Assembly: GCF_964355755.1 (NCBI RefSeq)
Contig: NC_092673.1
Span: 34,283,648 to 34,347,647, forward strand
Reading direction: 5' to 3'
Length of the DNA stretch: 64,000 nt
From: Antedon mediterranea
Lineage: Eukaryota > Animalia > Echinodermata
The notes below the pieces were generated by a model. That model saw only the letters and a program-made list of their open reading frames with translations. It made no database searches and was not told where the DNA came from. Numbering within the stretch: position 1 is the stretch's first letter; each line of letters opens with the position of its first letter. Made by a program: the position numbers and the translations under genes. Of the stretch, positions 6,821-55,723 are shown one piece after another.

Positions 6821-9800
6821 ATTAGTTTTTTAGTAGTTTTTAAGAGAAAATAATTCAGACGAAATCACTCCGTATCACGGAGATCCGTCTTTTGTCAGTA
6901 GACACGAATCGATTAAACAAAGACGCTTGTTAGAAAACTGTGAAAAGTTATTGCAGTCTAACTGCTACTTTAACGAGTTGGGCAACTGTAAAACACCGTT
7001 TCATATTTTCCACCAGTGTAGAAAATGTAAGATATACACAAAACGTAATGTAGGTTCACATGTTAGAGCATGTAACGAAAATACGAAATTACATTACACG
7101 CAATTTAAAGCGTTTCAGTCTTTAAAAGCTGCTCAGAAAAGATCCATTGAGTGCGAATCCACATCAGGATTTTGGACCGATGAACAACAAAAAAAATAAA
7201 AAAATACAAAAAAAAAAAAAATATGTTTAATATTTATGTATGTATATCAATATAATAAAGTTCACACGATGATGAATATTGTTTACGAAAAAGTTATTTC
7301 ATTACCATCTACCGCTACCAACCACATTATTTAAAATAGCGCCCTCTATTATGATGACATCACTACATGGTACCTCAATTTTCGAAAAAATTTATTCTAT
7401 TACCAACAACCATTACCAACCATCCCATATCAACACCATCGTCTATTTTGAAATGAACTGCTCCCCCTTGCGGTGGTACATAAACGGTTCGATACTCACG
7501 ACTAGCCTATAATACGTTGTAGTAAAGTACGCCCTCTATGTGTATATCGCCCTCTATATATGAACATCGCGCTCTACGATATAAAGTGCGCCACCTACGG
7601 TCGATAGAGGGCGCTATTTTATTATGACTCAACAGAATTCCAAGTAATCCAATAAACCAGGTTGAGTAACTACTAACTGAATTAGCACATTTAATAAAAT
7701 GGCAGATAGTTGATGGAAGGTTCTTGGACATCAAATATCAATGGTTAAGATTCGGCCTATTTCACCATCTAACTCCTCATACATATAACCTTTTATTAGG
7801 AATTTCCAAGTACAAGACAACACTGTACATAATTTATTCAACGCACTAAAACTCACCATAGATCATTCCTATTCCTGTCCAATTTTGTATCTAAAGGTTC
7901 ACAATAAAATAACTGACATAGACATAATTAACAATAGTTGCCTTCCTGACCGTTTAGGGAAACCCCACCGTCGTGATGTCTTTATTTCGGTAAATCCGAG
8001 TGTAGCATGCCTCTAAACCAACGGACCCACAATTACGTCGATCTTGAACAACACTTTTGTTTTTTATAGCACTTCAGGTAAATATTTTAGAATATGACAA
8101 CTATAAGTAAAATAAACCTATTTCAAGAACTAATTTTTAAAGAAAGATGGACATAATTAGAAAAAATGCAGGCAGTGCTGCCAAAAATGCTCTTTTCAAT
8201 TTCACCAAAGCGTGATGAGCCACACTGCAGAAAGTATAGAAGAGTCTATATCGTTCTTGGAACCCATGGAACATGCAGACTTTGGTTATGACAATCCGTG
8301 CTAAAACATAAATAAAGCAGACAGACTATAGAACAATATATTTTACACAATTCTACTATTTGGCAACATTTTCCTTGTTTTGCAAACCACAGAGGGGACT
8401 TCTTTTCGAGTTGGGTACACATTTCGCGTATGGTACACATTTTGGTATGTACCACTACCAACAGGAAAGGTGGGTGGAACCTTTTTGCAGAACGTCAAAA
8501 GGCTGGGAAAATTTAAACAACTCATCATCCAACCAATCTATATTATCTTCCCTTTTCTTTTGAGTTTTCTTTTCGTCACATATTTCCGGTTTCTTTTTAT
8601 TCATTTCTTATCCGTTGTATTGTATACATAGGATAGAGCTTATCTTAACCAACTGCATGTAAATGGGGCAATATCAATGCAATGTAGATTACCTTATAGT
8701 TTCGTCGTGGCCTGCTGTACATAACAGCGACACGATGAAAGTAGCAGACATATTATAATGGAATGGCTTCACGTATATTAGAATGAAGCCAACAAAAGAC
8801 AATCAAACAATAATGAAGTATGTCAAAAGATGCAAACATGTTTTTGACGATTACGTTGAAGACACATTTATTATCTGCAACGAAAATTTAGAAATGGTGG
8901 CGACAACTGTCTATAAGACTGAAAGTGAATGCATGCCCCTGCTCTAACAATAAATTTAATGACACAGTGTCATAAAAACTTTAACTCATTGTTCAAAGTA
9001 TTAAGCAAATAAAATGTATTATTTAAAAAAGATGGTAAAGAGTTATCATTGTCCTGTCTTAGGATCAGATTAAATTAAGAATAAGCAACTGATTTTCATT
9101 GATGTTTCTTGAATGTTCTTATTATTCATTTTACTGTAGATGCATATTTACAACTAATAGCATTTCACCAGAATCTTGAAGACGAGGGACATCAGTTGGA
9201 TGCAAAACAAATTGTATGTTCACATTTCATTGCCGAAACCCTAAATTTCAGGCGAATCACCCACTTGCTGCAACCGGAGTTGCAGGTTAGGTTATTTTGT
9301 AGTTGAGTCTTCAAATCATATCCTAAATTTATTATCTGCAACAGAAATTCAAAAATAGAGAACTCATGAAAACGTGAAAGTTATTAAATTATATTGCGGA
9401 CTTCACATTTGTCACTTTTGTGTCCATAGGTTGGTCATGCCACAGGTGCCATGGGCTAGGTACCCAATCATGGTTGTTAAAGGCCGATTGGATTGTAATC
9501 ATTGTTTTTTCATTAAAGAAAATACAATGAGGACACCGCCGACAGCCCCTAATTCACCCACCCTCTAAAACCCTTCTAGTTGTTTAAATTTTAAATCAAT
9601 TAATACACGATTTTTAAAAGTGCAACAGCTGCCAACACTCATAAATCTAGTCAGGGATTGGGGTATTCTGCCTCAGCAGAATTTTTTTACAGTATTATTC
9701 CAACTCAAATGTTATTTATTTTTTAAATTCACCAGGAGCCCAAAAAGGGTAAAAAGCGTACAAGACAATGCCCTTTACCAAAGTGTAAAGCCAAGGTTCA

Positions 9801-10159
9801 GCAATACACCCACCCTCTAAAACTCTTCTAGTTGTTTAAATTTTAAATAAATTAATAAATTAAATATTAGGCGCAAACTTTATTGATGTGGCAGACAAAT
9901 TACAAGCGTTTTTAGAAGAACTTAACTAGACGGGGAAAACACTGAAAGAAAGCACAATGAAATGTGGCGATGTAGCTGAGATGATGTTTGAAGTAAAAAG
10001 CCAGACTCTGAACACGCATGGATGACACTCTTAAGGAGGCATTTTGCAAGACCTAATTCGGATGGACTGAAAGTGATATGTCGTGACACGATTTTTACAA
10101 GTGCAACAGCTGCCAACACTCATAAATCTAGACAGGAATTGGGGTAGTCTGCTTTTTTG

Positions 10160-10375
10160 ACAGTATTATTTCAACTCAAATGTTATTTATTTTCTAAATT
10201 CACCAGGAGCCCAAAAAGGGTAAAAAGCATGCCCTTTACGAAAGTGTAAAGCCAAGGTTCAGCAATTTGTATGGCATCTAATGGGCAGCAAGCATGGCTT
10301 ACTACAAGAAGATGCAATGCCAATTGTAGATGAAAGCAGTCTCAAGTTGAAACGTGACAAGTCAGAACTTGACAA
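10160..10375 (+). pseudogene. Diverged fragment of the recombinase zinc-finger exon with its upstream intron (second fragment at ~9690-9803)
   Basis: cagtattatttcaactcaaatgttatttattttctaaattcaccag|gagcccaaaaaggg matches 25905-26130 with substitutions and deletions. Confidence 0.85.
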
Positions 10376-13623: not shown

Positions 13624-14277
13624 ATGGAGTTTTATTTCGGTTTTCCTTCACACACCGTATGCAGACCGGAAGGAAACCTGAAATGTGTACGTGTACATCT
13701 GCTACATAGACGGATAGCACACACTATTTTTTAAAAATGTAGGAAAATACATTTATTCACTTCTATATATAAATTACGCAATGTGATCAGTGAAGTAGAT
13801 CACATTAGATGTGCAGCGTACGGTGATTTGGAGTTATCATTCCAAATAGGAGTTCACACAAACATCGACGATACAACAAGAAGTCCTCTGTGTTACTGGC
13901 CGAAATTTCTACTCGAAATGCGTGAATGGATACACATTGCGACTGGTCATAGTTACATTATGGTGACTTTGACAAGAGCAGAGGATTCAGCGGAATGCTA
14001 TCTTAATAATGTACAAAGGAGCGAAACAAGTCCTGTATGCATTATGTCTCTTGGACCTACTAGAATCTGTAGATTCGAACACCGTACAAAAAACCCCATT
14101 AAACCGGTGAACATAAAAATGGAGCATGGTTCGATGCTGGTAAAAAATTCTGAAACAATCAATGAATGGTCAAGAACTGTACCAAAGACAGATGGAATAG
14201 GAAGCACCAGCATATTAACATTTATGAACATTGAAAGGTATAGTAACATCAATATTACAACAAACAATGTATTGTAG
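13624..14277 (+). pseudogene. Intronless AlkB/ALKBH2-like 2OG-Fe(II) fold gene, catalytic motifs absent, one in-frame stop
   Basis: ATG 13624 is in frame with ORF 13783-14277 apart from TAA at 13732. ALKBH2-like blocks AAYGD, W..FL.EMR, IMSLGPTR..RF, MEHGSMLV, W..TVPK, ILTF. TATAAAA at ~13608. Confidence 0.7.
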
Positions 14278-16014: not shown

Positions 16015-16368
16015 AAGTGGCAAGAGAGAATAGTGTACATGGCTGGTGAGATCCACCCTAGCCATAACACTAGGTTTTGGAAAGCAAGGGAGGTACAGGC
16101 AAGTCGACTTTGGCAAGACAACAACAATAAGACCGCCAACGTTTTATTTGCTCACAATGGGGAAAGAATTGTCGTTTTTGACTTTTGCAGAACTAATGAG
16201 GACAAAGTCAACTACCAAGTAATTTGAAGCCATTAAAAATGGTTTTATTTTAACTCTAAACGAATCAATTACAAAAGTATTTGATATTCCACATGTAATT
16301 ATTTTTGCTAACTTTGCACCATGACAAATTTAAGTGTTGATAAATGGATAATCCTTCACGTTTATTAA
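16015..16368 (+). pseudogene. CRESS DNA virus-type Rep, SF3 helicase domain remnant
   Basis: Across frameshifts: Walker A ESKGGTGKSTLAR, Walker B IVVFDFCR, NYQVI-EAIKNG, motif C PHVIIFANFAP and LSVDKW. Confidence 0.85.
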
Positions 16369-19300
16369 CCTATCCAGAACAACTAATTACACTTAGTCTT
16401 GAATATCATCAAATCACCAGTTTAATGACCCGAGAGAGATAGGTTGATCTTATAAATCCGAGACAAAGCCTAAAATCCTCATATGAAGAATGGAGCAAAT
16501 GATTAAATGCACAAGATGATGAAGGCTATATAGTGTCCTATATAACCTTTTATTAGAAATTGCCAAGTACAAGAAAACACTGAACATAATTTATTCAATG
16601 CACTAAAACTTTGGTCACCATAGATCATTCCTACTAAAATCAACCTCTCTTAAAGATTACTTAGCATTAATCCAAGTTTGATATTCTTTTTTGTTGATCC
16701 TATAAAAATAATAAAATAATAACTCAATTAAATTAAAAATATGTTTTGCAAATGCTCTATTCACATTCTAAAGCTGACAGGTGACCTTGTTTTCAATCTT
16801 CTTGACCTTTCACCATGTCGTTCCACTGTTCAAACCTGGCTTTTTCTTTCTTGGTAATTTGAGTGTTCTAATTTTGCATTGTGGTTGAGTTGAATTGCAT
16901 GATCTATGTCCGATTGATTGATAAGCAAGTTGAGATATTAAACTGGTGTTTTCTTTTTTACTTCTTGTTCTCCGATATAAATATGGTCACAGTTTAACAG
17001 GCCACTTTAATGCAGCCACAACTTTCCATTTTATCTTTTGGATTTAGTTATATGTGGTATAAAAAGTCTTTGTTTCGAGGGTTTCCATGAAAATAATAGA
17101 ACACCGCTGAATCTTCTCAATTATTTCTTTTGTTTGAAGTTGCCTTTTGTAGGACTACCAAAGCACAATAATTACAAGGCTCATCGGATCTATTGATTTA
17201 AAAAAAAAATAAAATCATCTTCTCTACGTTTCAGCATCTTTGTATCTTATGTGCAAGAGTTACCATAGATGGTGAGTTACACTAATTGGATATCATGTGA
17301 TTGTTGACTTCAAATAGTTATCCAGGTTAATTTCCATAATTTTATTGGTCTGTACAGGTTGACTTAGTTGTTAGTCAATGATTCTTCAAATCTTTCTCAA
17401 ATATAGGTTTGATGATGACTGCCACTGATGTAATCACTTGTTATTCCATAATGTTCTAGCCATTCCATAAACTTGTTTGTGATAATAAGCGTCTTCTTGT
17501 TGCATCACTGCTGTCAACAACACACAGGTGATGTTAGACCAGACTAAAAATAACAGCACCAGTCTACTTGAGAAAGCAAAGAGCATTCGCGAAACATAGT
17601 TATAAGGTACTATATTTTTGTACTTAAATTCTTTATTTTGTATTAGATTTAAAAAAAAGATAAAACTTAGGGTATCGTTAAGCAATATCTACAGAGGTTG
17701 ATTTTAGTAGGAATGATCTACAGTAATTCAAGTTCTAATGCATCAAAAAAATAATGTACAGGTAATTTTTATTCTCAACCTAAAAAGACAAATACCTTTT
17801 TTATGTATTTTTCAGTGAATCGTTTAGTCACTTGATTTATTTAATAAACTTACTGAATTTACTGGAGTAAACCTTCTATTAGAAATTGCTAAACTACCAA
17901 AATTGGAAGAACGTCGCAAATACAATTGCAAATCGCAAATACCATGAAAATGTCAAAAAAAAGAAAAAGCTAAAGGAGCAATCAGTTTGTAATATCCGTA
18001 AAATGCATTTCCAAAATACCTAATATATTCGATTCAGACACGAATGATGAAACGTTTAATCACTGAATGGAAATGATTTATTCAATGAACTACAATTTAC
18101 TGGAAGTAAACCTTCTATTAGAAATTGCAAAACTATCCAATTTCGAAGAATGCATAAAAACCATCACTCAACTGCACAAAGTGAATGGCTGAGCAAGACA
18201 GATCATCACAAAAATGATGAAGAAATTTAATAGGTAAAATTCGTCACAACCAATCTTTTATTAGACATTGCTAAACTGACAAAATTGAAGACTGCTACAG
18301 GTCTTTTAACAAAAATATGAGGATTACAACAGTAACACACTTTGAATTATCAACTGATCCAAATGCAGCAGAGGTACCAACACTGTCTGTGGAGAAGCTC
18401 CTGTAGTAAAGAAATTATGAGATATTCTTCCCAGAAGAATATCTGCTTATTAACGGAAGAGATTGAGTCTGATAAAGAAAGTTGTCACTGATAAGAAGTG
18501 AACACAAAAGTGTACAGGTAATTTTTATTCTCAACCTAAAAAGACAAATACCTTTGAAGGTAAGAATCCTGTAGTAAAGAAATTATGAGATATTCTTCCC
18601 AGAAGAATATCTGCTTATTAACGGAAGAGATTGAGTCTGATAAAGAAAGTTGTCACTGATAAGAAGTGAACACAGAAGTGTTGGAAAGGTTCTCAATAGA
18701 CTTTACATCTAAACATTTGGGATGCAGTATTTGAATTGGACATTGAGCCTTTTCAATAATATTTGGGATGTAGTATTTAGACTGGAGATAGAGTCCGATA
18801 AAACAAGTTATTACTGTATATTATTATTTCTTGATGTGGCAGAAAAATTGCAAGCGTTTTTGGAAGAAAATACTGAAAGAAAGCACAATGAAATGTGACA
18901 ACGTTTCTGAGATATTGTTTGAAGTAGAGAGAGAAATCTCGACAAAAAAGACAGTTTCGTCGTGCTTTGCTGTACATAACAGCGACACGATGAAAGTAGC
19001 AGACATATTACAATGGAATGGCTTCACGTATATTAGAATGAAGCCAACAAAAGACAATCAAACAATAATGAAGTATGTCAAAAGATGCAAACGTGTTATT
19101 GTATTTCAAAATTTATTAGTGTTGGAAAGGTTCTCAATAGACTTTACATCTTTTCAGTAATATTTGGGATGTAGTATTTAGACTGGAGATAAGAGTCCGA
19201 TAAAACAAGTTTTTCGGTTTACCTTTTGTTAAAATGCTGTCTGTTTTTAATTGAATGTAGGAGACATAATGAAAATAATTTCTTTTAATGCACAAGATTG

Positions 19301-22300
19301 TAATAAAGGTTTTTACAAAATATTTAGCAAAAAGATTGCTGTGAATAATATTAAATATGATTAATTAATTACAATGGAATGGCTTCACGTGTAATGAAGC
19401 CAACAAAAGACTTTACATCTAAACATTTGGGATGCAGTATTTGAATTGGGACAAAAATTCACACAAAAGAGATTGACTGTGAATAATATTAAATATGCAT
19501 ATTATGGAATGTAAAATATTTGTATTATATTAAAAGTTCTACTTAATATTGAGATGATAAAAAAAAGTAGCACTTTGGTTACAGTTCCTCCTGTTTGATC
19601 ATTTAGCTGTAGGAAACATATAATAATATGAAGAACTAATGATGTATTCCATGCACCAGAAGATAAAGGATATATACTGTATTATTTATTTATTCGGCAT
19701 GACTAAAAGCTTTATAAGTGAACACAGAAGTGTTGAGAAGGTTTACTTCATCAGAATTCAACAGACTTTACATCCAAAGGTTCCATTTCTTTCCACAGTT
19801 TCAGTCAGTGCTTGATCATGGTGCAAAATGATTTAATAATTTGCTACCCAACCTAAGCAGATGCGATAAAGGAGTTGAAGAGGAAGCAAAGACTTTTAAT
19901 AATTTGTTTAACTGTAATGTTTGCACTGGTTATTATCCCATTTTGGTTAAGATTCTTCCTATTTGACCACTATGACATATTATAGAATGTAAAATATTTG
20001 TATTATATTAAAAGTTCTACTTAAGATAAAAAAAAAAAGTAACTGTATTTTTATTCTCAACCTAAAAAGACAAATACCTTTTTATATGTATTTGAATTGG
20101 ACATTGAGCCTTTTCAAAACCATTAGGGATGTAGTATTTAGACTGGAGATTAAGTCCAATAAAACAAGTTTTTCGGTTTACCTTTTGTTAAAATGCTGTC
20201 TCTTTGATCAATTAGATGTAGGAGAAATGAAAATGATTTCTTTTAATGCACAAGATTGTAATAAATGTTATAATTATATATTAATATTTAGCAAAAATTC
20301 ACACAAAAGAGATTGCTGTGAATAATATTAAATATGACATATTATGGAATGCAAAATATTTGTATTATATTAAAAGTTCTACTTAGATAAAAAAAAAAGA
20401 TAATGAAGATACTGTAAACAAGACACATACCACTGTGGTGGGGAGATACAGTATGAAGAATTCCATAACTTTGTACGGTGCTTAATCGAAGAAAGTGCCG
20501 ATCAGAAAAATCTAATTCTGTTGCCACCGCCATTGCTGTGAATCTATGGGAAATGCATCAAAGTGGAAAATTACTCCTTTTGTTAAAATTCTGCCTATTT
20601 GATCAATTAGATGTAGGAGACATTTGGGATGCAGTATTTAAACTAGAGATTGAGCCTGGTGAAAAAAAACCTTTTTCAACTAATATTTGGGAAGTAGTAT
20701 TTAGACTGGAGATAACAAAGCTTAGAAACTAGTCAACACAATATTTTAAAAAGGTTGTGTTTATTCCAAACATTTGGGATTTAGTATTTAACTTGGAGAT
20801 TAACTAAGCTTTTAGAAACCATACAAAATAAAGATCAAAAGACAATAGCTGATCTATAGCTAATTATAGCTATTTTGTGTCACCTATACATTTTGCTAGT
20901 AGATAGGACAAAAGACATCACCATTGGTAGAAAATTTGTTCATTGCAGAAGATGAAGAAAATGACATTAGTTATGGCATCATAATCTAATGAATTACACA
21001 AACTTAATTTCAATTACAATATTCAAGAGTTTCAAAACGATAAGAATTTTGAATCACAGCAAACCATTACCAGTTCCATACCATTTTAAAATCATCTTAC
21101 TGCGATTTATATCGTTGATTAAATATAAAGACTTGTCAAAATGTTTCAGTCACAATAACCTTAGTGATATCACAGGTTTTTACCAAGGCGTTATCATAGA
21201 TGGTCAGTGAATGAGCTAAAAGGAAAGTTTTGCTACAATTATCTTAATATCAGAAACAATAATCTCAGCAAAATCAAGATTTAACTAAATTGCAGGTCAT
21301 CTGTGAAGCAATATCACAAAATAACTAGATTTTCTCTATATCTCTCATAATAACCTCAATGACATCAAAGGTACTTAACTTGCCATAGTACCGTTTATTT
21401 CTCCAAGAAATGCAACATGGGTGGGTTCAATCGCCAACACAACAAATTTCAATTGATGTATATTTGATGTATAGGCCTATATTTCCATTATGCAGATTCC
21501 ATAATATCATTCATTGTTTAGTTAATCAAATTCAATCAAATGAATACATTTCAGAATTTAATAATTTTATAGGATATTGTACTTGTAGTGCAAAGCATAA
21601 AACAAAATTGTCAAAAAGAAGTTGGTGGCATTGGGTAAAGAATTAAAATAAAACATAGTTTTAAACAAAGGTAATTTAATTTATTTTGAAATAGAGCAAC
21701 ATAATTGGCCAATAGCTAGCCTCTTCGGATTTGTTGTACTGCCTATAATATCGCACACACAGTAGTTTTCGAGCAGCCTTCCTATCCGAAGAGTCTATTA
21801 AGTCCGAAACGAAAGGATGGAAGAACTATTGTACGGAAAACCCGAACAGATCTGTTTTGTACGATATGATATTGTATAAGGTGATAATATGTATTAAATT
21901 GCAAGATTTTCATAAAAAAAATATTTTATTTTTGTTCTGTGGTATATTATTTTTTTGGTTGTTCAAAAAACACAAAATTATGCCAGATTATGCTAAAAAC
22001 GGCTAAATAATGCAGCGGCATTATGCCAGATGCCGTGGGCCTCCAAATATGCCAAAAAGCATAATAATGCCAGAAATGGCAACTATGATTTGAGCACAAG
22101 CTAACTGTTTATATTTAACGTTCAATCAATAAGATAGATAACCTAAGTTAACCTGTTACATTTCGATTCAAACCTTGCTTTGAACGGGTGATCAGGGCCT
22201 CCTACACATCTGTTCAAACCTTGCTTTGAGGTGCCTGTACACAACAGTGTGGTTCAAGACTTGATGCAGAATGATCTAGAACCTACAGACAAAGAATTAA

Positions 22301-22845
22301 CTGAAGGCTACTCTGTATAACATTGAAAAGCAAATAATGGACTCAACCATTCTTAAAATAGGGGTTTGGATAGTCTTGGTTGAACAATTAGGTCACATTG
22401 TTATTTCCTATGTACAGTATTGTAAATTACTCAACACAGCCTTCTGACCATGGAATTAGATTGAAAGAGTGCAGTAAGGTTACAATAATGGAATTAAGGA
22501 AAATATTGTGTAGCATACAACCAATACATTCCAGTTTGTTCTATGATTTTAATTGTTTGAATTACGTTAGGCTTGCTATTAGCTATTAAATATGTTACTG
22601 TATATAGAAAATCTCTGATAGGATATTTGCCACCACTGAAAAATAATACTACAGTTGACTATGCTATTTTCAGTACATGTCTAGCTCATCTGCTAATTTT
22701 TTTAAATAAAGAAAACTTAAAATCATAAAGAAAAAAAATGATTGCCCTAAACAATACATAATGTTTCATAATTAAATACAAGCTGTTAGGAATCTCCACT
22801 TTAAAAAAGGGTGCTAATGATTCACATAAGAATTAAAAGGACGTT

Positions 22846-24850
22846 AAATAATAAAAATGTATTGAAAATATGCTAATTAATTTGTTTATAATTGATTTTA
22901 ATTAATTAATGAAGAATTTTTTTTTTTTTTTGGTTTTTTGTTTTTTTTTGTTCATATTTATTCATTCATTCATTATTATATTATTCTATTTGACTTTTTC
23001 ACTTCAAAAATTAATTTTTAAATTACAATTATGGGACATAAGGATAGGATTTTATACAGTAAACCATATTTTTAACCCTGAATTTATGGTTAAAATATGG
23101 TATTAAGGCTCTATGTTCCAAACTCTAGGGGGCGCATCGGGGTTATGTTATGGTTGGAGCGGCGTGATGTCCCATCATGAAGTAGATTATCGTTTTATTT
23201 TGCGACAAGCAATATATTATTTAGGGAAACTGAGTTGGTGGCTGGTTAAGGAATAAATACTTTTAAAATATCTTTTTTTCGATTTCATACCGTTTTCGAC
23301 TGCAAACCATTATGTCGATGGCTTGTTTTCCTGGTATCGCCCTCTTTTTAGGGCTTTAATTTTCTAAACTATAGAGGGCCTGGCAAATAAAATATTGAAA
23401 TAAATAATTTAATATCAAATTTATTTTTATTTTATTGTTTGATTTATATTATATATACATTATATTTATTGTAAAACTTACAGTTAATGAAATGGACATG
23501 ATAATATGCCCAGCCAGACCAAACAAAATGTGCTAGGCCCAGGCCTAGCCTATAAAGTAGGCTAGATAGGGCGGCCGGTACTACTTCTGTAGGCTTCAGA
23601 AATAACCAATATAGAATTACAGTCTAAATTTAATTAAAATTCAATTATGTTTTAATAATATATATGTTTTTAGCATCTATAGTTTTATAGAATTTTGCTG
23701 ACTTGGTAATTTTTATGAAAATCATTATTATATGTTACTTTTTTAAACAATTTCAGTACCGGTATATTAACAAAAAAGTGTATAGGCTTCAGAAATTACC
23801 ATTGTAGAATTACAGCTTAAATTTAATTAAAATTCAATTATGTTATATTGATATATATGTTTTTAGCATCTATAGGTTTATAGAATTTTACTGGCTTGGT
23901 ACTTTTTAGGAAAATCATTACCGGTATTAATATTAATTAAATTTAAGTTCATTAAACCATCTTTATGACCCGGGGCTCATTAAACCATATTTTAAGATAA
24001 GATTAGATATAAGATAATTAATAATTAAACCATATTTGGGAGGGGGCTTAAGTCCATTAAACCATATTTTAACCCTGACTTCAGGGGTATAATATGGTAC
24101 GTGGCTTTATGGCCCGGGGATCAAGTCCAATAAACCATATTTTAACCCTGACTTCAGGGGTATAATATGGTACGTGGCTTTATGACCCGGGGATCATTAA
24201 ACCATATTTTAAGATAAGATAATTAATAATTATAATTAATAGTTAATAACAATTAAGTAGATAAGATAAGATAATTAATAATTATAATTAATAGTTAATA
24301 ACAATTAAGTCCATTAAACCATGTGGGAGGGGGTTTAAGTCCATTAAACCATATTTTAACCCTGACTTCAGGGGTATAATATGGTACGTGGCTTTATGAA
24401 CCCGGGGATCAAGTCCAATAAACCATATTTTAACCCTGAATCCAGGGGTATAATATGGTACGTGGCTTTATTACCCGGGGATCAAGTCCATTAAACCATA
24501 TTTTAACCCTGAATTCAGGGGTATAATATGGTACGTGGCTTTATGACCCGGGACTCATTAAACCATATTTAAAGATAATAATTACAATTAATAATTAATA
24601 ACAATTAGGTCCATTAAACCATATTTGAACCCTGAACTCAGGGGTATAATATGGTTTACTATATAAATTCCTATCCTTATGTCCCATAGGCCTAATTGTA
24701 ATTTGTAATTTAAAAATTAGTTTTTGAAGTAAAAAAATCAAATTGATTGGAAATATGAACAAAACAAAAAAAATAAATTCTTTATTAATTAATATTAATT
24801 ACTGTATAAACAAATTAATTAGCATATTTTTCAATAAATGTTTATTATTT
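22846..24850. repeat. ~2 kb segment bounded by ~250-bp imperfect inverted repeats, containing a palindrome array
   Basis: 22846-23100 is the reverse complement of ~24617-24850 (e.g. atgggacataaggatagga / tcctatccttatgtcccat). Also an internal direct repeat, 23588-23745 vs 23780-23925. Confidence 0.8.
24049..24657 (+). repeat. Array of ~73-bp units each with the imperfect palindrome ACCATATTTTAACCCTGA(A/C)TTCAGGGGTATAATATGGT
   Basis: Full units near 24049, 24123, 24338, 24411, 24484, 24608; a related copy at ~23060 and a half copy at 24920-24952. Confidence 0.9.
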
Positions 24851-24989
24851 AATTGATTTAATATAATTGCCATAAAAATTAGATGATTTTCGGTTAGGGT
24901 TAGGAGGGGGAGGGGGTTTAAGTCCATTAAACCATATTATAACCCTGAATTTCTTCCTGGACAGTGTGGTGCTGGCTCTATCATCTATG

Positions 24990-25026
24990 TGATTGGTCAA
25001 TTTGATCTATTTCATTGATTGGTCAA
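24990..25026 (+). promoter_or_regulatory. Putative recombinase promoter: tandem inverted CCAAT boxes
   Basis: Two tgattggtcaat motifs about 120-150 bp upstream of the ATG at 25146; also present in copy 1 at 2317-2353. Confidence 0.4.
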
Positions 25027-25145
25027 TGCAAGAAACTTCAATGACAAAAACTTCAATTCAGAAAAAAAAACTCTCATTCCAGTCACACCTACTATAGTAG
25101 TACTACATTAATACACAGAGAATACTGCAGTAGACTCAAGGAGGT

Positions 25146-28100
25146 ATGGCAGATAGAATAGTAAGATATTTCTGTTGTATTTTTTAATTGTTGTAAATTA
25201 ATTATAACCTACTGTAGCTAAACTTTAATGAAGATTAGCTACTGTGGGTTAGTTTAACTAATAAGCAAACTAATAAAGTTTGGGTACTGTACCTAAATTT
25301 GGGCATGTTATAAGTGTTTAAAAATGAAAAACAATTTTATTTTATACTGTTTTTATTTTTTTACCACTAGCCTAAATCAACATTTCTTAGTGAAGAAGAG
25401 ATTGAGATGGATAGCAGTAGTAGTGTTAGTGACGACAGCAGATCCGATTCAGAGTCCGATAGTGGTAGCGATATGTTTGGCAGTAGCAGTGATGTAGACG
25501 ACAATATTAATAAGGTACATTTTTTAACAATTTCATCAATAGAATTGTCAAAAATGTTGTAAATGTATGTTAATAATCGCATTATTGACGCATTGATCCA
25601 TTATTTTAACATTTTTTACTTTACACTTTATACTATTCCGTAAATGTCCTACAAAATACAATTAGGGGCGCAGCTTATTCAATCGATAATTTTATATTTC
25701 TAATAATTATTGGAGAGTGACGCTAATTAGGTCATTAACAGTATACATTGTCGATGTAATGAATAATGGTTATACTAATAATTGATAGGGTTGGTTTGTT
25801 GGGACTTGATAGGGCTTGGGTGGTATTTAGTAAGACCTAGAACAGTGGAGAGAGTGAAACTCGAATTGTGCAGATGTTAAATTATAAAATCATAACTTTA
25901 TTGTCACTGTATTATTTCAACTCAAATGTTATTTATTTTCTAAATTCACCAGGAGCCCAAGAAGGGTAAAAAACGCACAAGACAATGCCCTTTGCCAAAG
26001 TGTAAAGCAAAGGTTCAGCAACTTGTACGGCATCTAATGAGCAGAAAGCATGGTTTATTACGAGAAGATGCAATGGAAATTGCAGATGAAGGCAGTCTCA
26101 AGTTGAAACGCGACAAGTCAGAACTCGACTCTTGTCCGTTTCCGGGATGCAGCATGAAAAGAGCAAGAGTTGGAAGGCATCTCACTCAATTTCACAAAAT
26201 TGATAAAGGTATGTTGTATTAATTTTGATTAGTCTTTCAATCCTTTATTCAATAGATCATTATTAAGAAATATTGAGAACTAAGTAATAGAGGGTGCAAT
26301 TTAATTCTTGTGCACACTTTAAAATTTACCATGTTCAGATCCCAAATCATTGAATTGCGTTGAGTTACCAAATCGTTGAAGTTGAGAATAATGATGTTGA
26401 TTGAGCCGGACTGTTAATATTTACACATTTTAAGCGACCGTTCTTGGTTTTTTAGTTCTTTTGAGTGTTGCTAGGATACGCTTACGTGAAAATGGCTATA
26501 ATCATTAAACTATAAATATTAAATGACAATAGTCATTATTTCAAACTGCATCATACAGTTATGTTATTTGTTGTAGAATCTGTTAAAAATTCTTTCAATA
26601 AGTTTAGTTGTCCAGTGGCAATATTTCACTCCACGAACATCCTTAAACAAAATATACAAAATAACTACAGTATACTGTAAAATTGATTGATATTTCATTT
26701 TTCTATAATAGGCACTTCTGAATACATACGATTAATGAGAAAAAATAAAACAGGTAAGAAATAATATATAAGTCATATTTGGATTTTCTGATAATTCATT
26801 AGGATACTGGTGTATTGACCATTCTGTTTCCATTTTAATTTCTTCTTACTCTAGCCATTAACATTAATTACAATTAATGTATGATTAGTGGCTAAGGTGC
26901 TCACCTTTCAATCCCAGGGTCCAGTTCAGAAAAGTTGGCTATTTGGCTTTCCTTGGCCATGTGCCTAAATAAATAATTAAAAAATAATGGAATAAAATAA
27001 TATTGAGAAATCTAATAAAAACAATAATTACTAAAGATTTATTCTTATTGTACAACAAATTAAACATTTTGTATGATGTTTTTTTGTTCTTTCAGCTAAA
27101 TCATTATCGGAAGAAGAAGCGCCTTCTACATATAAACGAGTCGCCCTATACGATAGCTTCAAGAGGTTTAAGAAATACCTAACCAACATGGATGGAGGAC
27201 TCCTAGAGGAGGAGAACGCTCAGCAACATATTGTTCGCCTCCACAGGCTTTCCTCACTTGTTGGTGGTTTGGACGGTATGGTAAATGCTGACAAAATGCG
27301 CGAGTGTTTTACAAATTTACATGTAAAGTCACTAGATGGAAAGAAACCGATATCGGTTTCAACTACACTAGTGTACATTGATTCATATAGAAGGTTCTTG
27401 AAGTTTGCTATCTTAGCCAAAGTTGCTACTTTTCAGGATTTTGCCACTGACCTTTTGCTGCAGACCGAGAAATGGAACTCGGCTCTTGGTCGGCAGAAAA
27501 GGGTTCGGCACGCAGAGGTGGTTGCAACTGATATGCAGGAAAGGCTTCGTCATGACGAATTCCACCTGCTTACCAGTAGCAACAACCCTGCAAAAGTCCA
27601 GGCTTTAGAAATTCTGCGCAAGTCTGAGGACGAAGACTTCATCTGCGATGAGTCGGAATTTGTACGAGTCAGAGATTATATAATGATGCTGCTCGTATTA
27701 AATTCCGACCAACGCAGCGGTTGTCTAAAGAATCTCACTTGCAAAGAGATTCTAAATGCCGAGAAAAGAGGAACCCAGTGGATGATCCTAGCAGCTAGAC
27801 ACAAGACTACGTCTACTAGTGGAGCTGCTAGGATCATTCTCTTGGACGATGATTATCGGTTGGCTGAGAAATTTATCCAATGGATTCGGCCGTGTGTTAA
27901 TGACGAATGCGAGACGCGTTACGCCTTCACTAATTTTGTGGATGGCAAACAACTCTCAAGTTCTGTCATTAGCAAACGGCTGAAAACGGTTTGGATAAGT
28001 GCAGGCAACAGGAGTACGTTTAGCTGCACGAGGTTGCGTAAATTTTACACAACTTCGTTGAGGAGACGGGACCCTACTCTAAGGGAAACTTTGGCCTCCC

Positions 28101-28252
28101 ACTTAACCCACAAAGCAAATACAGCTGATAGATTTTACGAACTACAGCAGAGCGTAGATAATAGCCTAAACGTAGCCCGTCATCTACGCTCTCTAATATC
28201 ACTATCGGATCGGATCTGCGGCTACTCTCACTCCATTCTGAATGTTATTTAA
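25146..28252 (+). CDS. Spliced tyrosine recombinase with N-terminal acidic tract and two C2H2-like zinc fingers (Crypton-like), about 537 aa
   Basis: Five phase-compatible GT-AG exons: 25146-25160, 25371-25514, 25953-26208, 26712-26753, 27096-28252 (1614 nt). Fingers CPLPKC..RHLMSRKH and CPFPGC..RHLTQFH. YR motifs QRSG (Arg), HKT (Lys), RLRK and HLTH..TADRFY (His, Tyr). Confidence 0.85.
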
Positions 28253-29374
28253 GTTCCTCTTCATTAAGAAATGCTGATTAAAACAGTTTTTAAAAAAACA
28301 GTAAATAAAACCAGTTTAAAATTAAAATTAAAATTGTTTTTCATTTTAAAATAATAACATGCCTAACTTTAGGTATGGAGGTTGGGGGTTCATATAAGCT
28401 AACCACCCAAATTTATGTCTTGTTTGTTTTTTTTTTTTGTTTTTTTTTTTAATATAAAGTGTAAATTATACAAAATAGGATAGTGTTAATTGCATTTGGT
28501 TAAGACGATTGTGCCGTAAAAAATGTTACATAATGGATCAATGCGTTTAATAATGCAATTATTAAAACATAGATTTTCAACATTTTTTTTACGACAATTC
28601 TATTGATGAAAATGCAATTACTCTTTCTAATGTTAAAAAATGTACCTTATTGTTGTCGTTTGAATATGTATCACTTGAATCAAAAGGGGGTGGTGGGGAG
28701 TATGGAGGGACGTTCAAACATATAAAAAAAAATTTCCTTCATACCTCCCCTTTAAATATTGGTTTTTGTATTTTTGTATAATGAATAAATTACTGAATAA
28801 ATCTGGCTCTGAACCAGTTGAGATTACTACACAAGTTTATGATTATTTTATTCTGTTTAATGTTGCAATATCTTAGTTGCTTTACTACAAGTTGTTATAC
28901 AGTATTATTCATTTCAACCTCAACTGAGTCCAATGTCTTTTGAAAATGCTTCGGTATCTAACAGTATTTAATATCGACAATATAGATATAATGAGACTGG
29001 TAACGACGTGACATGTTGTTGATGATTAATTTGATGATGATTTGATGATAATAATAATAATAGACTTGCATCATTTCAATGTTTGTTATTAAATATATAT
29101 TTTTTTATATATTTAAAACCAACCTTTATTTAACGCTACAGATGTTTGACCTGGAAAATTAAAAGGTTGTCACGGGAAAACAGCGATTATTTTATTCTAG
29201 TTGCTTTACTACAAGTTGTTATAATTCATTTCAACCTCAACAGAGTCCAATGTCTTTTGAAAATGCTTCGGTATCCCTAACAGTATTTAATATCAACAGT
29301 ATAGATATAATGATCAGACTGGTAACGACGTGACATGTTTGTTGATGATTAATTTGATGATGATTTGAATGCAG

Positions 29375-30485
29375 ATGGCACGATACATTTTAAAAGCACC
29401 GGCGTATACACCCAAAGTGGCTTTATATGAAAATTTAGGATGGATACCCTTAACCGTATCTCATAAGATATTACAAACTAAAATTCTTTGAACGTATAGT
29501 CGGGTTGAATGAGAAACGATGGCCCAACCTGTATTGTACAAGACTAATGCTTAATTACAACACAAAAGAATTACGGTTTAAATTCCATAGTTGTGTACGA
29601 ACCACTTTCTGTAGATTTGTTATTAAAAATTGCACTATGGAGAATTGGTTTAATTTACTGAAACAAAATATTTTAGATAACGTAATATTAATCAATGGTC
29701 AGAGGACCTTGTATCTAAATCGACGCTGTCTTTTTATGCAAAGTTAAAATCAAAGCCGGATCTTGAACAATTTTAACTTGATAAAACAAATTTTAATGGT
29801 GCCCGTCTTAAATTTCAAGCCCGTTCCAATTCTCTACCTTTAAATTTTAAATTAAGTAAATGGACCGTGGATAATGATGGTCTCTGTTCATTATGCAACT
29901 TTGGAGATATAGAGGACATATCTCATTTTTTATTTAGTTGTGATGCATTGTGTAAGAGAAGAACAGCTAAATATACTTAAACAAGATTTAATTTATCATA
30001 ACGAGTTAGATGTTTGGGAAATATTCTGGAAAAAATTCTATATGTTATGGGGACAGATACACTTCCCCTCAGTAATAATGTTCTATAAGTATTGTGTTTT
30101 GACAAATTTTGTAAAGTATACCTAACAAGATCATGGAAAATACGAAACAATCTTAACAACTCGCAGATAGCATGTAATGCTTTGTATTGTTGCGGTATAG
30201 AGTTTATACTGACATCTCTATATTTTGAGCTCTTTTTTTTATATTTTCTATTTTCAATTATTACTGTACTACTTAAATTGTTTGTCTTTCTTTTCTTTTC
30301 AATTCATTGTATTTTGCTTAAGTCACGTACGACTAGGACAGCGATCGAGTCAGTCGGCGTTGTTGACTCTAGTTTTTATTTTTTACTTTTTGTATCTGTT
30401 GAATGTCTATTTGTATATAGAACACACCGTGTATGAACGGGTGCCACCATTGTAAAGGTGTAGTTTTAATAAATTATATCTTATA
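29375..30485 (+). mobile_element. 5'-truncated non-LTR retrotransposon, ORF2 C-terminus (truncated copy at 6270-6820)
   Basis: Frameshifted ALYENLGW...FQARSNSLPL...CSLCNFGDIEDISHFLFSC (CCHC knuckle), followed by a 3' UTR ending in AATAAA. Confidence 0.8.
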
Positions 30486-31500
30486 CTGTATCTAATAGAC
30501 TTGCATCATTTCAATGTTTGTTATAATATGTATTTTCTTGTATATTTAAAACCAACCTTTATTTAACCCTACAGATGTTTGACCTGGAAAACTAAAAGGT
30601 TGTCACGGAAAACAGCAATTATTTATAAACAATGATAAAGAAACATTCCTGATCAATATTCTTCCAATTTATTTTGTTTAAAACAACTTTAGGGAGGTCA
30701 TTACCACGTGGACAATCTACTTTCACATGCCATTTGAGGATTGAGTTGGCTCAAGATTTCTGGTGGTCAATAATTTAAAATTTGCATGCCTTGTCAAGTT
30801 GATCCATGGGGGAATAATAATATTCCATTTTATACAGTACTGTATTTCTGTTTTGTAGTCATACAGAATTTCAACTCAATCTACAGTACAAGGAGTAATT
30901 AGGTAACATTATTTATTGTAATTACATTTCAGGACCCAAGTGTAAATAAGGAAACTTTTCTTGGCTATCCTTGTGATCTCCATGTTGTCATCAAGGTCTG
31001 TTCCTTTGCCAAATTTTTTCTTTTTTAAGTGGTATTTTAATATTTATGTAACAGTATTTCAATTGACCTTGATTGCTTAATAAAGAAACTTTGACCATTA
31101 ACATGCAGAAGACAAAAGCACTGGAGGAGATGCACCAAAAAGAGAGTAAATCCTGCGCCTTAGTGCAAAAAGAGTAGACCAATTAAGAGAGAGATTAACT
31201 GTAAATAGACCAAGAAAACACAATTCTTAATTTTCAAGTCTTAACTCACAAGTAAACGAACAGGAAAACTGAATATATATATGAATTGAATTAGACAACT
31301 ATGTATTTCTTACTTGATTAGTCACTTTTTGTATTATACTGTATATTTAGACAACTTTTATTTTAACTTATAAATAAAATGGACTAAAGTTTGACCTTTT
31401 GACCAACCTTGAACCTTTGGTATTAATTTAACTGCAATGGGCTGTTTATAAAACTGTCCAGATGCCAGCTAAAATAATTAGGCTTTGGTTTATGGTCTCA

Positions 31501-32398
31501 GGGCCTGTTTCTGCTGAGCAGAAATAATCGATTATTAACCGTTTATTTTTTTAATCGATTATTTTTGGGCAGCAGAAACGGCGCAAAATAAAATAACCGA
31601 TTAAAAATAACTGATTAAAAACACTCAATCCATTGCGTGTTTTAATCGATTATTTCTTGTTTTAACCGATTATTGCGGAGCAGTTTTGAGCTGCAACACA
31701 AATAGCGATTATTGACCTCACTTTGACCTCTAGAGTATGACAAACTTATTCACGTAAAAGCATGCTGTTTTGCGCGATATCGACGACGATCAGCAAAACC
31801 ACGATTGCGATGTATACCGAATAACAATCAAATGTAACATTTGATTTTTATTATTTTGTGGGGGAGAATTATACCGAGAGACTCCAGGATTCTGTGTTAC
31901 AAGTACACCCGTTACATACCACCAGTCCAGGCTAACGATGTTTTACATGTCATTTTTTAGGCCTGTTGTCTGTTGACTTGTTCCGGTAGAAGTATATAGC
32001 CTATAGGCCTAGCAGGCCGAAGGTAGAACCAACGAACGGCGAAACAAACTTTTTTCGCCGACGTGTCCTTATTAATATAACATCATTATTCTGTTGTATG
32101 TGGTACGGTAGTATGCCTAGATGTTTATTTTACAAATAATATAGCTTTACGCAAGAGTAATTTTTAATCCTACATGTGAGAGTTTTAGGCAGCGATACGA
32201 TGTTAAAACAAACCAACTCTCATCGGCCTTTCATAACTTGAACTCCGCTGTGGGGGAATGATGACGTGATTTTAAAAACCGATTACCTGAATAACCGATT
32301 AAAGTCTTAGCAATTTTCAATTGCAACGCGATTATTTTTGTGGTTTGCGGTGACTGGAAAAAATCGATTATTTTGATTTTTTCAGCAGAAACTGACCT
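31501..32398. mobile_element. PIF/Harbinger-like MITE
   Basis: TIRs gggcctgtttctgctga / tcagcagaaactgacct, 3-bp TSD TCA, subterminal aatcgattat repeats. Confidence 0.75.
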
Positions 32399-37260: not shown

Positions 37261-37744
37261 AAAGATTAAATCTATAGCCCAGAAGATGCTGTACTTAGTA
37301 CTTACAAAACCTACGCCTAACCTTCAACACTTGCCTCCACTCCGATCCCCTGCTGCTGACGAAAAGATACTTGCTCTCTCCTCACACGCAAACGTGTCCA
37401 TGACTAGACTATACCAATTTCCCTTATGGGGAACCAGTACTACCTATGTATGTAGCATAATGCACTACGCATTATCGACGCATATCCTCTTTGGAATAAA
37501 ATATCAGGCATTGTGCTTAATGTGTTTATACCAACAAAACAAATATAAAATTGAAGTACCTTCAAATTTTTAAAAAAATTAATAGGCCTCTTGGTTGATA
37601 CCATTATCATTTATTTTTTATTCCCTATCTCGAGGTACGGTATTCATAGCGTCATTTCGACGATCAAGCATTCTCTACTTCTACGGAGCGCCATTTATGC
37701 CTTTATTTACTTACGAAATAGAAATAGTACTTCGGTAGCTGCTC

Positions 37745-40700
37745 CAGTGGACCAAATTTAGCACTAGTGGAGCGCAGTAATATAAAATAGAAATAAGTTA
37801 CTAATTTTAATATCTTTTCGTATGGTAATACACTGTGCTCAAGTGGACACAATTTGGCTCCAGTGAGGAGCACAGTGATATAAAATAGAAATAAGTCACT
37901 GAATATTAGGCCTAATATCTTTTCGTACTGTATGTTAATACACTGTGCTCAAGTGGACCCAATTTGGAGCCAGGGGAGCACAGTGATATAAAATAGAAAT
38001 AAGTCACTGAATGTTAATATCTTTTCGTATGTTAATACACTGTGCTCAAGTGGACCCAATTTGGCGCCAGGAGAGCACAGTGATATAAAATAGAAATAAG
38101 TCACTGAATTTTAATATCTTTTCGTATGTTAATACACTGTGCTCAAGTGGACCCAATTTGGCGCCAGGAGAGCACAGTGATATAAAATAGAAATAAGTCA
38201 CTGAATTTTAATATCTTTTCGTATGTTAATACACTGTGCTCAAGTGGACCCAATTTGGAGCCAGGGGAGCACAGTGATATAAAATAGAAAAAAGTCATTG
38301 AATTTTAATATCTTTTCGTATGTTAATACACTGTGCTCAAGTGGACCCAATTTGGAGCCAGGGGAGCAGCACAGTGATATAAAATAGAAATAAGTCATTG
38401 AATGTTAATATATTTTCGTATGTTAATACACTGTGCTCAAGTGGACCTAATTTGGCGCCAGTGGAGCACAGTGATATAAAATAGAAATAAGTCATTGAAT
38501 GTTAATATATTTTCGTATGTTAATACACTGTGCTCAAGTGGACCTAATTTGGCGCCAGTGGAGCACAGTGATATAAAATAGAAATAAGTCACTGAATGTT
38601 AATATCTTTTCGTATGTTAATACACTGTGCTCAAGAAGTGGACCCAATTTGGAGCCAGGGGAGCACAGTGATATAAAATAGAAATAAGTCACTGAATGTT
38701 AATATCTTTTCGTATGTTAATACACTGTGCTCAAGAAGTGGACCCAATTTGGAGCCAAGGGAGCACAGTGATATAAAATAGAAATAAGTCACTGAAAGTT
38801 AATATCTTTTCGTATGTTAATACACTGTGCTCAAGAAGTGGACCCAATTTGGCGCCAGTGGAGAACAGTGATAAAAAATAGAAATAAGTCAATTTGGAGC
38901 CAAGGGAGCACAGTGATATAAAATAGAAATAAGTCACTGAAAGTTAATATCTTTTCGTATGTTAATACACTGTGCTCAAGAAGTGGACCCAATTTGGAGC
39001 CAAGGGAGCACAGTGATATAAAATAGAAATAAGTCACTGAAAGTTAATATCTTTTTGTATGTTAATACACTGTGCTCAAGAAGTGGACCCAATTTGGCGC
39101 CAGTGGAGAACAGTGATAAAAAATAGAAATAAGTCACTGAATTTTAATATCTTTTCGTATGTTAATACACTGTGCTCAAGTGGACACAATTTGGAGCCAG
39201 GAGAGCACAGTGATATAAAATAGAAATAAGTCACTGAATGTTAATATCTTTTCGTATGTTAATACACTGTGCATGCTCAAGTGGACCCAATTTGGAGCCA
39301 GTGGAGCACAGTGATATAAATAGAAATAAGTCACTGAATTTTAATATCTTTTCGTATGTTAATACACTGTGCTCAAGTGGACCCAATTTGGAGCCAGTGG
39401 AGCACAGTGATATAAAATAGAAAAAAAGTCACTGAATTTTAATATCTTTTCGTATGTTAATACACTGTGCTCAAGTGGACCCAATTTGGCGCAAGGAGAG
39501 CACAGTGATATAAAATAGAAATAAGTCATTGAATGTTAATATATTTTCGTATGTTAATACACTGTGCTCAAGTGGACCTAATTTGGCGCCAGTGGAGCAC
39601 AGTGATATAAAATGGAAAAAGTCACTGAATTTTAATATCTTTTCGTATTTAATATACACTATGCTCAAGTGGACCCGATTTGGAGCCAGGGGAGCACTGT
39701 GATATAAAATAGAAATAAGTCACTGAATTTTAATATCTTTTCGTATGTTAATACACTGTGCTCAAGAAGTGGACCCAATTTGGAGCCAGGGGAGCACAGT
39801 GATATAAAATAGAAATAAGTCACTGAATGTTAATATCTTTTCGTATGTTAATACACTGTGCTCAAGAAGTGGACCCAATTTGGAGCCAGGGGAGCACAGT
39901 GATATAAAATAGAAATAAGTCACTGAATGTTAATATCTTTTCGTATGTTAATACACTGTGCTCAAGAAGTGGACCCAATTTGGCGCCAGTGGAGAACAGT
40001 GATAAAAATAGAAATAAGTCACTGAATTTTAATATCTTTTCGTATGTTAATACACTGTGCATACTCAAGTGGACCCAATTTGGAGCCAGTGGAGCACAGT
40101 GATATAAATAGAAATAAGTCACTGAATTTTAATATCTTTTCGTATGTTAATACACTGTGCTCAAGTGGACCCAATTTAGAGCCAGTGGAGCACAGTGATA
40201 TAAAATAGAGAAAAGTCACTGAATTTTAATATCTTTTCGTATGTTAATACACTGTGCTCAAGTGGACCCAATTTGGCGCAAGGAGAGCACAGTGATATAA
40301 AATAGAAATAAGTCATCGAATGTTAATATATTTTCGTATGTTAATACCTGTGCTCAAGTGGACCTAATTTGGCGCCAGTGGAGCACAGTGATATAAAATG
40401 GAAAAAGTCACTGAATTTTAATATCTTTTCGTATTTAACATACACTATGCTCAAGTGGACCCGATTTGGAGCCAGGGGAGCACTGTGATATAAAATAGAA
40501 ATAAGTCACTGAATGTTAATATCTTTTCGTATGTTAATACACTGTGCTCAAGTGGACCCAATTTGGCGCCAGGAGAGCACAGTGATAGAAAATAGAAATA
40601 AGTCATTGAATGTTAATATATTTTCGTATGTTAATACACTGTACTCAAGTGGACCTAATTTGGCGCCAGTGGAGCACAGTGATATAAAATGGAAAAAGTC

Positions 40701-41120
40701 ACTGAATTTTAATATCTTTTCGTATTTAATATACACTATGCTCAAGTGGACCCGATTTGGAGCCAGGGGAGCACTGTGATATAAAATAGAAATAAGTCAC
40801 TGAATTTTAATATCTTTTCGTATGTTAATACACTGTGCTCAAGTGGACCCAATTTGGCACAAGGGGAGTACAGTTATATAAAATAGAAATAAAGTCACTA
40901 CATTTTAATACAATACCGTATCTCATTTGTATCTAATACACTGAGCTCAATGGACTCAATTTGGCACGAGCGGAGCGGAGGGATATAAAATAGAAATAAA
41001 ATCACTAAAATGTTATATCTCATTCGTATGTTAATAAACTGTGCTCAAGTGGACCCAATTCGGCACCAGTGGAGCACAGTGATAGTAATAAGTTACCGGT
41101 ACTGAATTTTAATATCTTTT
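37745..41120 (+). repeat. ~97-bp tandem satellite, about 34 copies
   Basis: Unit cactgtgctcaagtggacccaatttggagccaggggagcacagtgatataaaatagaaataagtcactgaatgttaatatcttttcgtatgttaata; more units at 42630-42902 and inverted at 46450-46620. Confidence 0.97.
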
Positions 41121-42129: not shown

Positions 42130-42632
42130 GCACATCCTCTCAAACTACGAACTAACATTTACAACACCTTCAATTTTCATACAGTCCAAGATAGCATGCA
42201 TCTACAACTGGGCTGCCTTGCCTACAGGTCTGCAGATGGTCTTGTTCCGGAATACCTTGTCCTGCGTCTTGCCAGAATTCCAAATCATCGATGTACCCGA
42301 AGTGTCAGTGAAAGGAAATTTGTCGTCCCTTTCCCTAAAACTGAAACTTTTAAGAACAGCTTCATCTATAGAGCACCAACATACCTGAATTTGCTACCCA
42401 CCAAACTAAGAAATGCGTTAACAATAAATAATTTTAAGTCTGCTCTAAAAAAATATTTAATCCCAAAAGAAAAAACTCAACGTTTTGTATAGTATTTTAA
42501 GCTATATTTTTGTATTTAAGTACATATATAAATTTTTATATTTTTTGAACATAGTTTTTTCATATATGTTTTTGACTGTCTGCATATGTTGTTTAGGGTC
42601 ACCCTCACAAAATAAGGTTTAATAAAAAAATA
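42130..42632 (+). mobile_element. L2/Crack-like LINE 3' end
   Basis: GCLAYRS..VPEYL...TRS...VPFPKTETFKNSFIYRAP...LP...NNFKSALK with AATAAA and an A-rich tail. Confidence 0.8.

Positions 42633-46818: not shown

Positions 46819-55723
<8,905 letters not shown>

Follow-up and report, generated by a model that had tools for sequence, protein, structure and literature searches.

A palindrome array upstream of an animal tyrosine recombinase gene is most likely a local hairpin minisatellite rather than a set of the enzyme's cutting sites

Introduction

Partner sites of tyrosine recombinases have the same spacer, and a centre of the EcoRI type is a feature of baculovirus hrs. According to the available part of PMC3212892, a tyrosine-recombinase site consists of inverted arms of 11-13 bp around a spacer of 6-8 bp. 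Cryptons have defined ends and short direct repeats, and no long TIRs. Some CryptonV families insert in microsatellites (Kapitonov and Jurka 2012, as cited in the available part of PMC8869645). In bivalve satellites, 13 of the 16 junctions of one repeat lie inside a palindrome (PMC5139131, available part), and the internal arrays of MITEs reach six monomers (PMC5139131 and PMC12628747, as far as their available text goes). The available parts of PMC6681497 and PMC13465315 hold nothing on palindromic ends, and in the literature outside subscription journals and Repbase Reports we found no pair of an animal Crypton-type recombinase and a dyad site.

Here, we analysed a stretch of 64,000 nucleotides (the window), in which an earlier note had described an array of palindromes (dyads) and discussed them as recombinase sites or a replication origin. 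We consider the array to be a locus-specific hairpin minisatellite, grown locally by copying errors, with a rough probability of 0.55; its shape likely needs no recombinase. For comparison, contigs of five runs (X1, X2, X5, X6 and X8) from two related organisms, A and B, were used; the eight runs with the stretch come from three studies, and the assembly itself may have been built from runs X1 and X2. The window is eukaryotic, as seen from GT-AG introns and a SET-domain gene. The exons of the latter, which we take to be SMYD5-like, lie at 59983-63246 on the reverse strand, with a Pfam SET match above the cut-off, in an ordinary host chromosome context.

Results and Discussion

The dyads form an irregular array with variable centres

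Positions 23953-24614, forward strand: array body, built of truncated arm plus AT-rich block, then G-run, then two or three units of 67-74 bp; it holds five dyads and six truncated left arms.
Positions 24061-24098, no strand assigned: dyad 1, readable as 15+8+15; dyads 2-5 start at 24134, 24348, 24422 and 24495.
Positions 24892-24916, forward strand: G-run and two TTAGGG-like repeats; an identical G-run opens both unit runs (24039 and 24326).

All six dyads that the earlier note had listed were found, each 38 bp long and the sixth starting at 24618; the window contains the 18-mer arm 14 times (at most three mismatches), where chance would give 0.11 and none of 100 shuffles reached 14. The units of about 73 bp described with them hold for a part of the array only: units of 67-74 bp contain five of the dyads, in runs of two and three with AT-rich blocks between, whereas dyad 6 (24618-24655) continues into DNA unlike that of the other units. 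A seventh dyad (see below) and the six truncated left arms had been overlooked. Self-complementarity amounts to 30-34 of 38 positions per dyad, and the three dyads of the six that were folded gave fold z values of -3.8 to -4.9. Units differ from each other at 2-5 of 61 positions (3-8%), and cuts at every TAAACCAT show that AT-rich block, G-run and units together recur as a higher-order repeat. Contig depth on the dyad is about 3-8 times that of the flank, a rough ceiling only and not a copy number. No Rfam match was obtained in 20000-31000, a bacterial promoter scan stayed at chance level, and no microsatellite is present at the array or the junction beyond the two TTAGGG-like repeats.

The truncated left arms (at 23953, 23981, 24026, 24198, 24315 and 24559) break off after 5, 12, 9, 12, 5 and about 9-12 bases, none of the six at the axis. 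Truncation is thus common in the array.

A dyad can be read as 15+8+15 or as 18+2+18. The former brings in the alternative that the adjacent recombinase binds the dyads, either as core-type sites (15+8+15) or as a subterminal array at the 5' boundary of an element like CryptonV, in which case the last copy would be a junction with a look-alike target; we regard this explanation as possible, although less probable than a minisatellite. The distribution of variable columns (1 of 30 in the arms, and in the central 8 bp 3 of 8; p 0.024 in a post hoc Fisher test) speaks for such sites and against a minisatellite, as the arms are spared and the centre varies, as in a bound site; a hairpin loop would give the same. 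On the other hand, the central 8 bp do not show the single spacer of partner sites, since four different 8-mers occur among the six dyads, and this would hinder exchange. The dyad arms of 15-18 bp also exceed the 11-13 bp that are usual in the available part of PMC3212892. The 73-bp unit as a whole is loosely palindromic around another axis, at CCCGGG, and it may also represent fused 5' and 3' element ends with a putative crossover at that motif.

The array is the right-hand interior of a 2-kb foldback

Positions 22844-23106, reverse strand: left arm, about 260 bp, an inverted copy of 24614-24852 (73% identity with gaps across a poly-T run).
Positions 23064-23101, reverse strand: seventh dyad, diverged, at the inner end of the left arm (fold z -2.8).
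Positions 23590-23920, forward strand: direct duplication of 138 bp in the foldback interior (23590-23727 and 23783-23920, 91%).
Positions 24614-24852, forward strand: right arm, opening with dyad 6; in organism B one contig covers it and runs on to 24937.

The allele of the left arm found in run X5 differs from the right arm at 11 of 124 nt (about 9%, in the best part), and the arm-to-arm homology stops beyond the dyad, not inside it. The layout, with inverted arms, a non-coding interior and tandem repeats, is that of a foldback or MITE with an internal array. The outer ends are ragged and carry no direct repeat of 6-10 bp, and the listed contigs with dyads, compared at 80% likeness, all come from this locus. 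Since no sibling is present among the listed contigs and there is no target-site duplication of 6-10 bp, we do not assign the foldback to a transposon family, and this counts against the minisatellite account.

The last copy is likely an eroded unit

Positions 24917-24987, forward strand: last copy, left half intact and right half eroded; in both organisms, contigs link it to the region upstream of the recombinase.

The last copy opens with a G-run, like both unit runs. It had been described as cut near its centre, about 35 bp before homology with the other recombinase copy begins, and the exact match indeed ends at the axis (about 24951), 36 bp before the homology start at 24988. The cut is not complete, however, as 24951-24987 still agrees with the right half of the unit at 21 of 35 positions. 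Of 5000 shuffles 13 scored as high, as did 253 of 123,328 37-mers of the window, in a test run after the likeness had been noticed in alignment A1. Because of these matches past the axis, the copy is, judged by its letters, likely an eroded whole unit that ends at about 24987, and the duplicated recombinase block starts where this unit ends, a point against the minisatellite reading. The copy may instead be a junction with a look-alike target, with which the residual likeness is compatible: a target resembling the element's own site would also leave likeness past the axis, a point in favour of recombinase sites.

A reciprocal half was found neither downstream, in agreement with the earlier note, nor anywhere else in the window. 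When the six truncations, the arm end and the last copy are taken as eight junctions, none shows a clean break at the axis, which argues against recombinase sites; seven are off-axis and the eighth is ambiguous. A recombinase crossover would break in the spacer and leave two reciprocal hybrid sites. Local growth is the simplest account. The proposal that the half site is an integration junction was not supported, given the homology beyond the axis, the six off-axis breaks, the missing reciprocal half and a second recombinase copy that is a dyad-free segmental duplicate (see below).

A spliced tyrosine recombinase gene, catalytically complete, lies next to the array

Positions 24988-25030, forward strand: two ATTGG (reverse CCAAT) boxes at 24992 and 25018, predicted promoter; the duplicated block starts here.
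Positions 25407-28252, forward strand: tyrosine recombinase gene, 520 aa, exons 25407-25514, 25953-26208, 26712-26753 and 27096-28252, with two C2H2-type fingers and a Cre/Xer-like domain.
Positions 2315-6848, forward strand: second copy, frameshifted, of the block 24988-29960 (0.7-1.6% mismatch, about 99% identical), with a split ORF and no dyad.

The neighbour had been called a recombinase, and this was confirmed: it is a real, spliced tyrosine recombinase gene with the full catalytic set. The frame is open for 520 aa from the ATG at 25407 once three introns are removed, and splice joints at all three occur in run X5 (its RNA label is presumed, and introns are covered too); two of them read GT..AG, and the third is offset by the alignment. 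The structure model has a pLDDT of 90, and its fold matches XerA, Cre, XerH, lambda Int and Tn1549 Int; no protelomerase is among the PDB matches listed for the fold, and a sequence search of PDB gave no match. Residues R206, K236, R314, H338 and Y347 are kept in at least 90% of 41 aligned proteins (41 of the 150 listed), and in the H-x-x-R motif of the window's protein the first His is replaced by Thr. The Pfam Phage_integrase match (E 6.8e-5) is under the curated cut-off. No relative of 211-672 aa came up in a word-index search of proteins; a full HMMER search gave 857 relatives. The best Atlas clusters are eukaryotic, and the closest relative among the matches listed is the crinoid protein XP_033099785 of Anneissia japonica (45%, residues 21-323 only). 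A hairpin of 47 bp with 21-bp arms lies upstream of the ATG (25205-25251) and also in the second copy (2522-2568), and the zinc-finger exon has two further partial copies, at 9689-9804 and 10152-10373.

That the array stands directly upstream of the recombinase is true of the predicted promoter and not of the coding region, as the ATG lies at 25407 and the catalytic exon begins at 27096. The promoter is predicted from the two boxes. In both organisms the array borders on this predicted promoter, which belongs to an intact recombinase gene; that counts against a minisatellite, and an intact, spliced enzyme with its catalytic set next to the dyads is what binding sites would lead one to expect; the recombinase bound to them may regulate its own promoter. 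Alternatively, the array could be a putative enhancer or insulator of the recombinase gene, in which cellular transcription factors would bind repeated sites just ahead of the CCAAT boxes, an idea to which we give little credit. Within about 40 bp of the array lie the two ATTGG boxes, the gene has splice joints in run X5 (RNA label presumed), and palindrome arrays of baculoviruses work as enhancers (PMC4535591, available part). However, the two organisms are only about 4-5% apart in the flanks, so the shared array needs no selection, and the junction segment 24960-24989 differs between them.

The recombinase is likely a resident CryptonV-like element: a tyrosine recombinase with its catalytic residues is present, as in Cryptons. 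No element ends were found for it, the duplicated block terminating at 29960 within a fragment that looks LINE-like by its translation, though not by a family match, and the insertion in a microsatellite that is a trait of some CryptonV families is not seen at the array or the junction. A second motif-bearing end is likewise lacking in the 35 kb downstream, a further point against recombinase sites.

By its sequence, the second copy is a segmental duplicate and not a separate insertion. The DNA upstream of it is a copy of 18567-19012, and its upstream junction has a few bases of microhomology. It carries no dyad, which counts against recombinase sites. Positions 1-21000 of the window are a patchwork of locally duplicated pieces, among them decayed ORFs in which a peptide motif is repeated.

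The array stays at one locus in two related organisms

In organism B, the flanking DNA is about 4-5% different, and the spacer, the right arm and the junction to the recombinase upstream region are all present. Between the organisms the difference is about 3.5% (10 of 290); with the arms about 9% apart, the foldback likely predates their split. Dyad 6 of organism B has three changes that make it more symmetric and agree with the left-arm form of A. No differences are listed from 24990 onward.

To assess dispersal, 24590-25060 was compared at 80% likeness (22, 13, 13 and 13 contigs per run; the array spacer is outside that stretch, and run X2 was partly filtered). Every listed contig with a dyad leads on either into the left arm or into the spacer of this very array, and the remaining listed matches, from other loci, are AT-rich pieces of 37-42 bases. 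The dyad motif is not a dispersed MITE among the contigs listed, as far as the tables show; the earlier note had named such dispersal among the findings that would speak against recombinase sites. Diverged further recombinase sequence is present in organism A, yet the listed dyad contigs all stay at this array. Neither the dyad nor the arm patterns occur in IMG/VR, the JGI metagenomes or the GTDB genomes. An array restricted to one locus and common to two organisms is in line with recombinase sites.

A contig of organism B with the recombinase (X8) has in-frame deletions of 42 bp and 9 bp (27497-27540 and 27942); it may be a paralogue, as it has letters in common with diverged copies in A.

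Three candidate rearrangements were set aside. The left arm seemed missing in organism B (depth 0 at 22921-23127, a joint 22853-23205 with 21 letters on one side), and a hole is no proof. An opposite-strand joint 23020/24705 (X2) was considered as an inversion, and its loose end reads as the left-arm allele. The joint 23946-24831, a possible empty site, has just 21 letters on one side and was not used.

Relatives of the recombinase have ends of a different kind

We retrieved 71 metagenome loci with an alignment of a 14-protein subfamily, many of them near-duplicates. Relatives with visible ends abut (CT)n or (AG)n. A 17-mer stands near their 5' end in a single, inverted copy, and their 3' end has 6-9 direct copies of it, spaced about 21 bp apart.

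Loci with this end layout: L002, L003, L007, L008, L009, L011, L012, L019, L021, L022, L035 and L065.

Insertion in a microsatellite is seen in L002, L003, L008, L009, L011, L021, L022 and L035, and in L003 two elements stand head to tail over a short (CT)n. These relatives look like CryptonV, a label taken from the microsatellite trait and not from a comparison with Repbase. Near two other relatives there are ORFs of about 1,600 aa with no Pfam match (L056, 6258-11081; L058, 5602-10431).

Arrays of 6-9 repeats at one end of the relatives count against a minisatellite, and one inverted motif plus an end array is echoed by the foldback, with one dyad at its left and six at its right, as recombinase sites would have it. 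The details, however, do not agree. The 17-mers of the relatives are asymmetric and not dyads; in a profile of 52 relative end sites the dyad arms score below 0, and the window has 9 sites vs 5-11 in shuffles. Neither (CT)n nor the family motif is found at the array, and two similar dyads in the 4 kb upstream, as in this array, occur in none of the 33 loci (of 71) with at least 2 kb upstream, where the window as a control gave 10 pairs. In a tree of 36 rows, from which L011 was left out owing to frameshifts, the window's protein groups with XP_033099785 on a long branch that holds none of the 8 end-bearing loci, so the ends of the relatives need not apply to the window's gene and the comparison with them is an indirect control, which weakens the case for a minisatellite.

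A stronger form of the recombinase reading would be a native animal Cre/lox-like pair, in which an intron-bearing, transcribed and catalytically complete recombinase has a private 15-8-15 array at its own promoter, kept at a single locus in both species, and uses it to regulate itself or to rearrange DNA site-specifically; we hold this to be rather unlikely. If the recombinase binds the dyad, an animal recombinase of the Crypton type would have both a concrete enzyme and a concrete site.

No viral origin is apparent

An origin of the hr type had been suggested, which would make the array part of an endogenous large DNA virus and the recombinase a viral integrase. Its appeal is one of form: units of 67-74 bp with an imperfect palindrome resemble hrs of 3-8 units of 64 bp with a 24-bp palindrome (PMC4535591, available part). 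The GAATTC axis of the dyads would also fit a centre of the EcoRI type. Against it, no viral hallmark family was found among the ORFs scanned (7, 37 and 3; most ORFs of 33000-64000 by eye), IMG/VR contains no relative of the dyad or the recombinase, spliceosomal introns interrupt the recombinase gene, the fold search against viral proteins places VLF-1 at ranks 40-42, no better than phage integrases, and there is a single array. This explanation is largely refuted.

Two other observations in the window may be recorded. The stretch 16060-16330 (forward strand) is a broken, frameshifted fragment in three frames, whose words we presume to be like Walker A, Walker B and motif C of a superfamily-3 helicase, resembling a CRESS-virus Rep; the scanned pieces of it had no Pfam match. 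An ORF of 180 aa (13735-14277, forward strand) has a weak 2OG-Fe(II) oxygenase (AlkB-like) match (E 0.011, under the cut-off).

A probable local origin of the array

A hairpin minisatellite is the most likely explanation of the array, ahead of the enzyme's cutting sites. It is based on the two arms, the dyad in both of them, five near-identical units, the off-axis truncations, the eroded last unit and the same locus in two organisms. In the proposed course of events, an inverted duplication or the insertion of a solitary foldback would have produced the two arms, likely as the earliest event. The dyad and 35 bp next to it would then have been amplified in tandem, by replication slippage or unequal exchange, followed by duplication of larger blocks. 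The hairpin-prone DNA may have suffered deletions at varied places and mutations in the loop, and a later duplication of the microhomology type would have taken the recombinase gene from 24988 and left the array behind.

A local precedent is the foldback at 37632-46733, where a hairpin-bearing unit of 97 bp is repeated about 35 times at the left end, with no recombinase ORF. This foldback is 9 kb long, has arms of about 290 bp (84%) and a few inverted copies of the 97-bp unit at its right end. It is one of five inverted-repeat elements, with arms of 34-550 bp, that the window contains besides the foldback of the array; a further element, of 290 bp, has 18-bp arms. Some of those at 41630-43455, 44000-53533, 47371-48193 and 31507-32392 are nested or overlapping, and two have short subterminal repeats. 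The 290-bp element (7332-7621) has a perfect 18-bp inverted repeat with four partial internal copies at about 20-bp spacing. A motif family CGCCCTCTA (7340, 7530-7605, 12849, 23126, 23338 and 23372) was considered as true element ends and rejected, as its regions align no better than shuffles, save for the 18-bp inverted repeat 7332/7604. If the array is a minisatellite, it is one more palindromic repeat in a repeat-rich animal genome, of little significance.

Comparison with known systems

Like loxP, FRT and dif, the dyad can be read as arms with an 8-bp centre, and the window's protein folds like Cre and XerA. Unlike those sites, the window's dyads stand in a tandem array and lack a partner site, their arms measure 15-18 bp, and their centre varies and is self-complementary. 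With baculovirus hrs the array shares a unit length near 70 bp and an imperfect palindrome in every unit; it differs in being one array in a host chromosome where no viral genes were found.

The window's protein is about 21-33% identical (most listed matches) to the recombinases of (CT)n/(AG)n-ended elements, as would fit CryptonV, and the zinc-finger exon is common to these CryptonV-like relatives and the window's gene. In contrast to them, the gene has three introns and stands on a separate branch with one crinoid protein. Foldback and MITE elements with internal arrays (the pearl family, DTC84 and CvA; Tetris) resemble the locus in their inverted arms around about six monomers, in the palindrome within the monomer and in the breaks near it, as described in the available parts of PMC5139131 and PMC12628747. 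From these elements the 2-kb foldback differs in having neither siblings among the listed contigs of either organism nor a target-site duplication of 6-10 bp, and in that its dyad is part of the arm.
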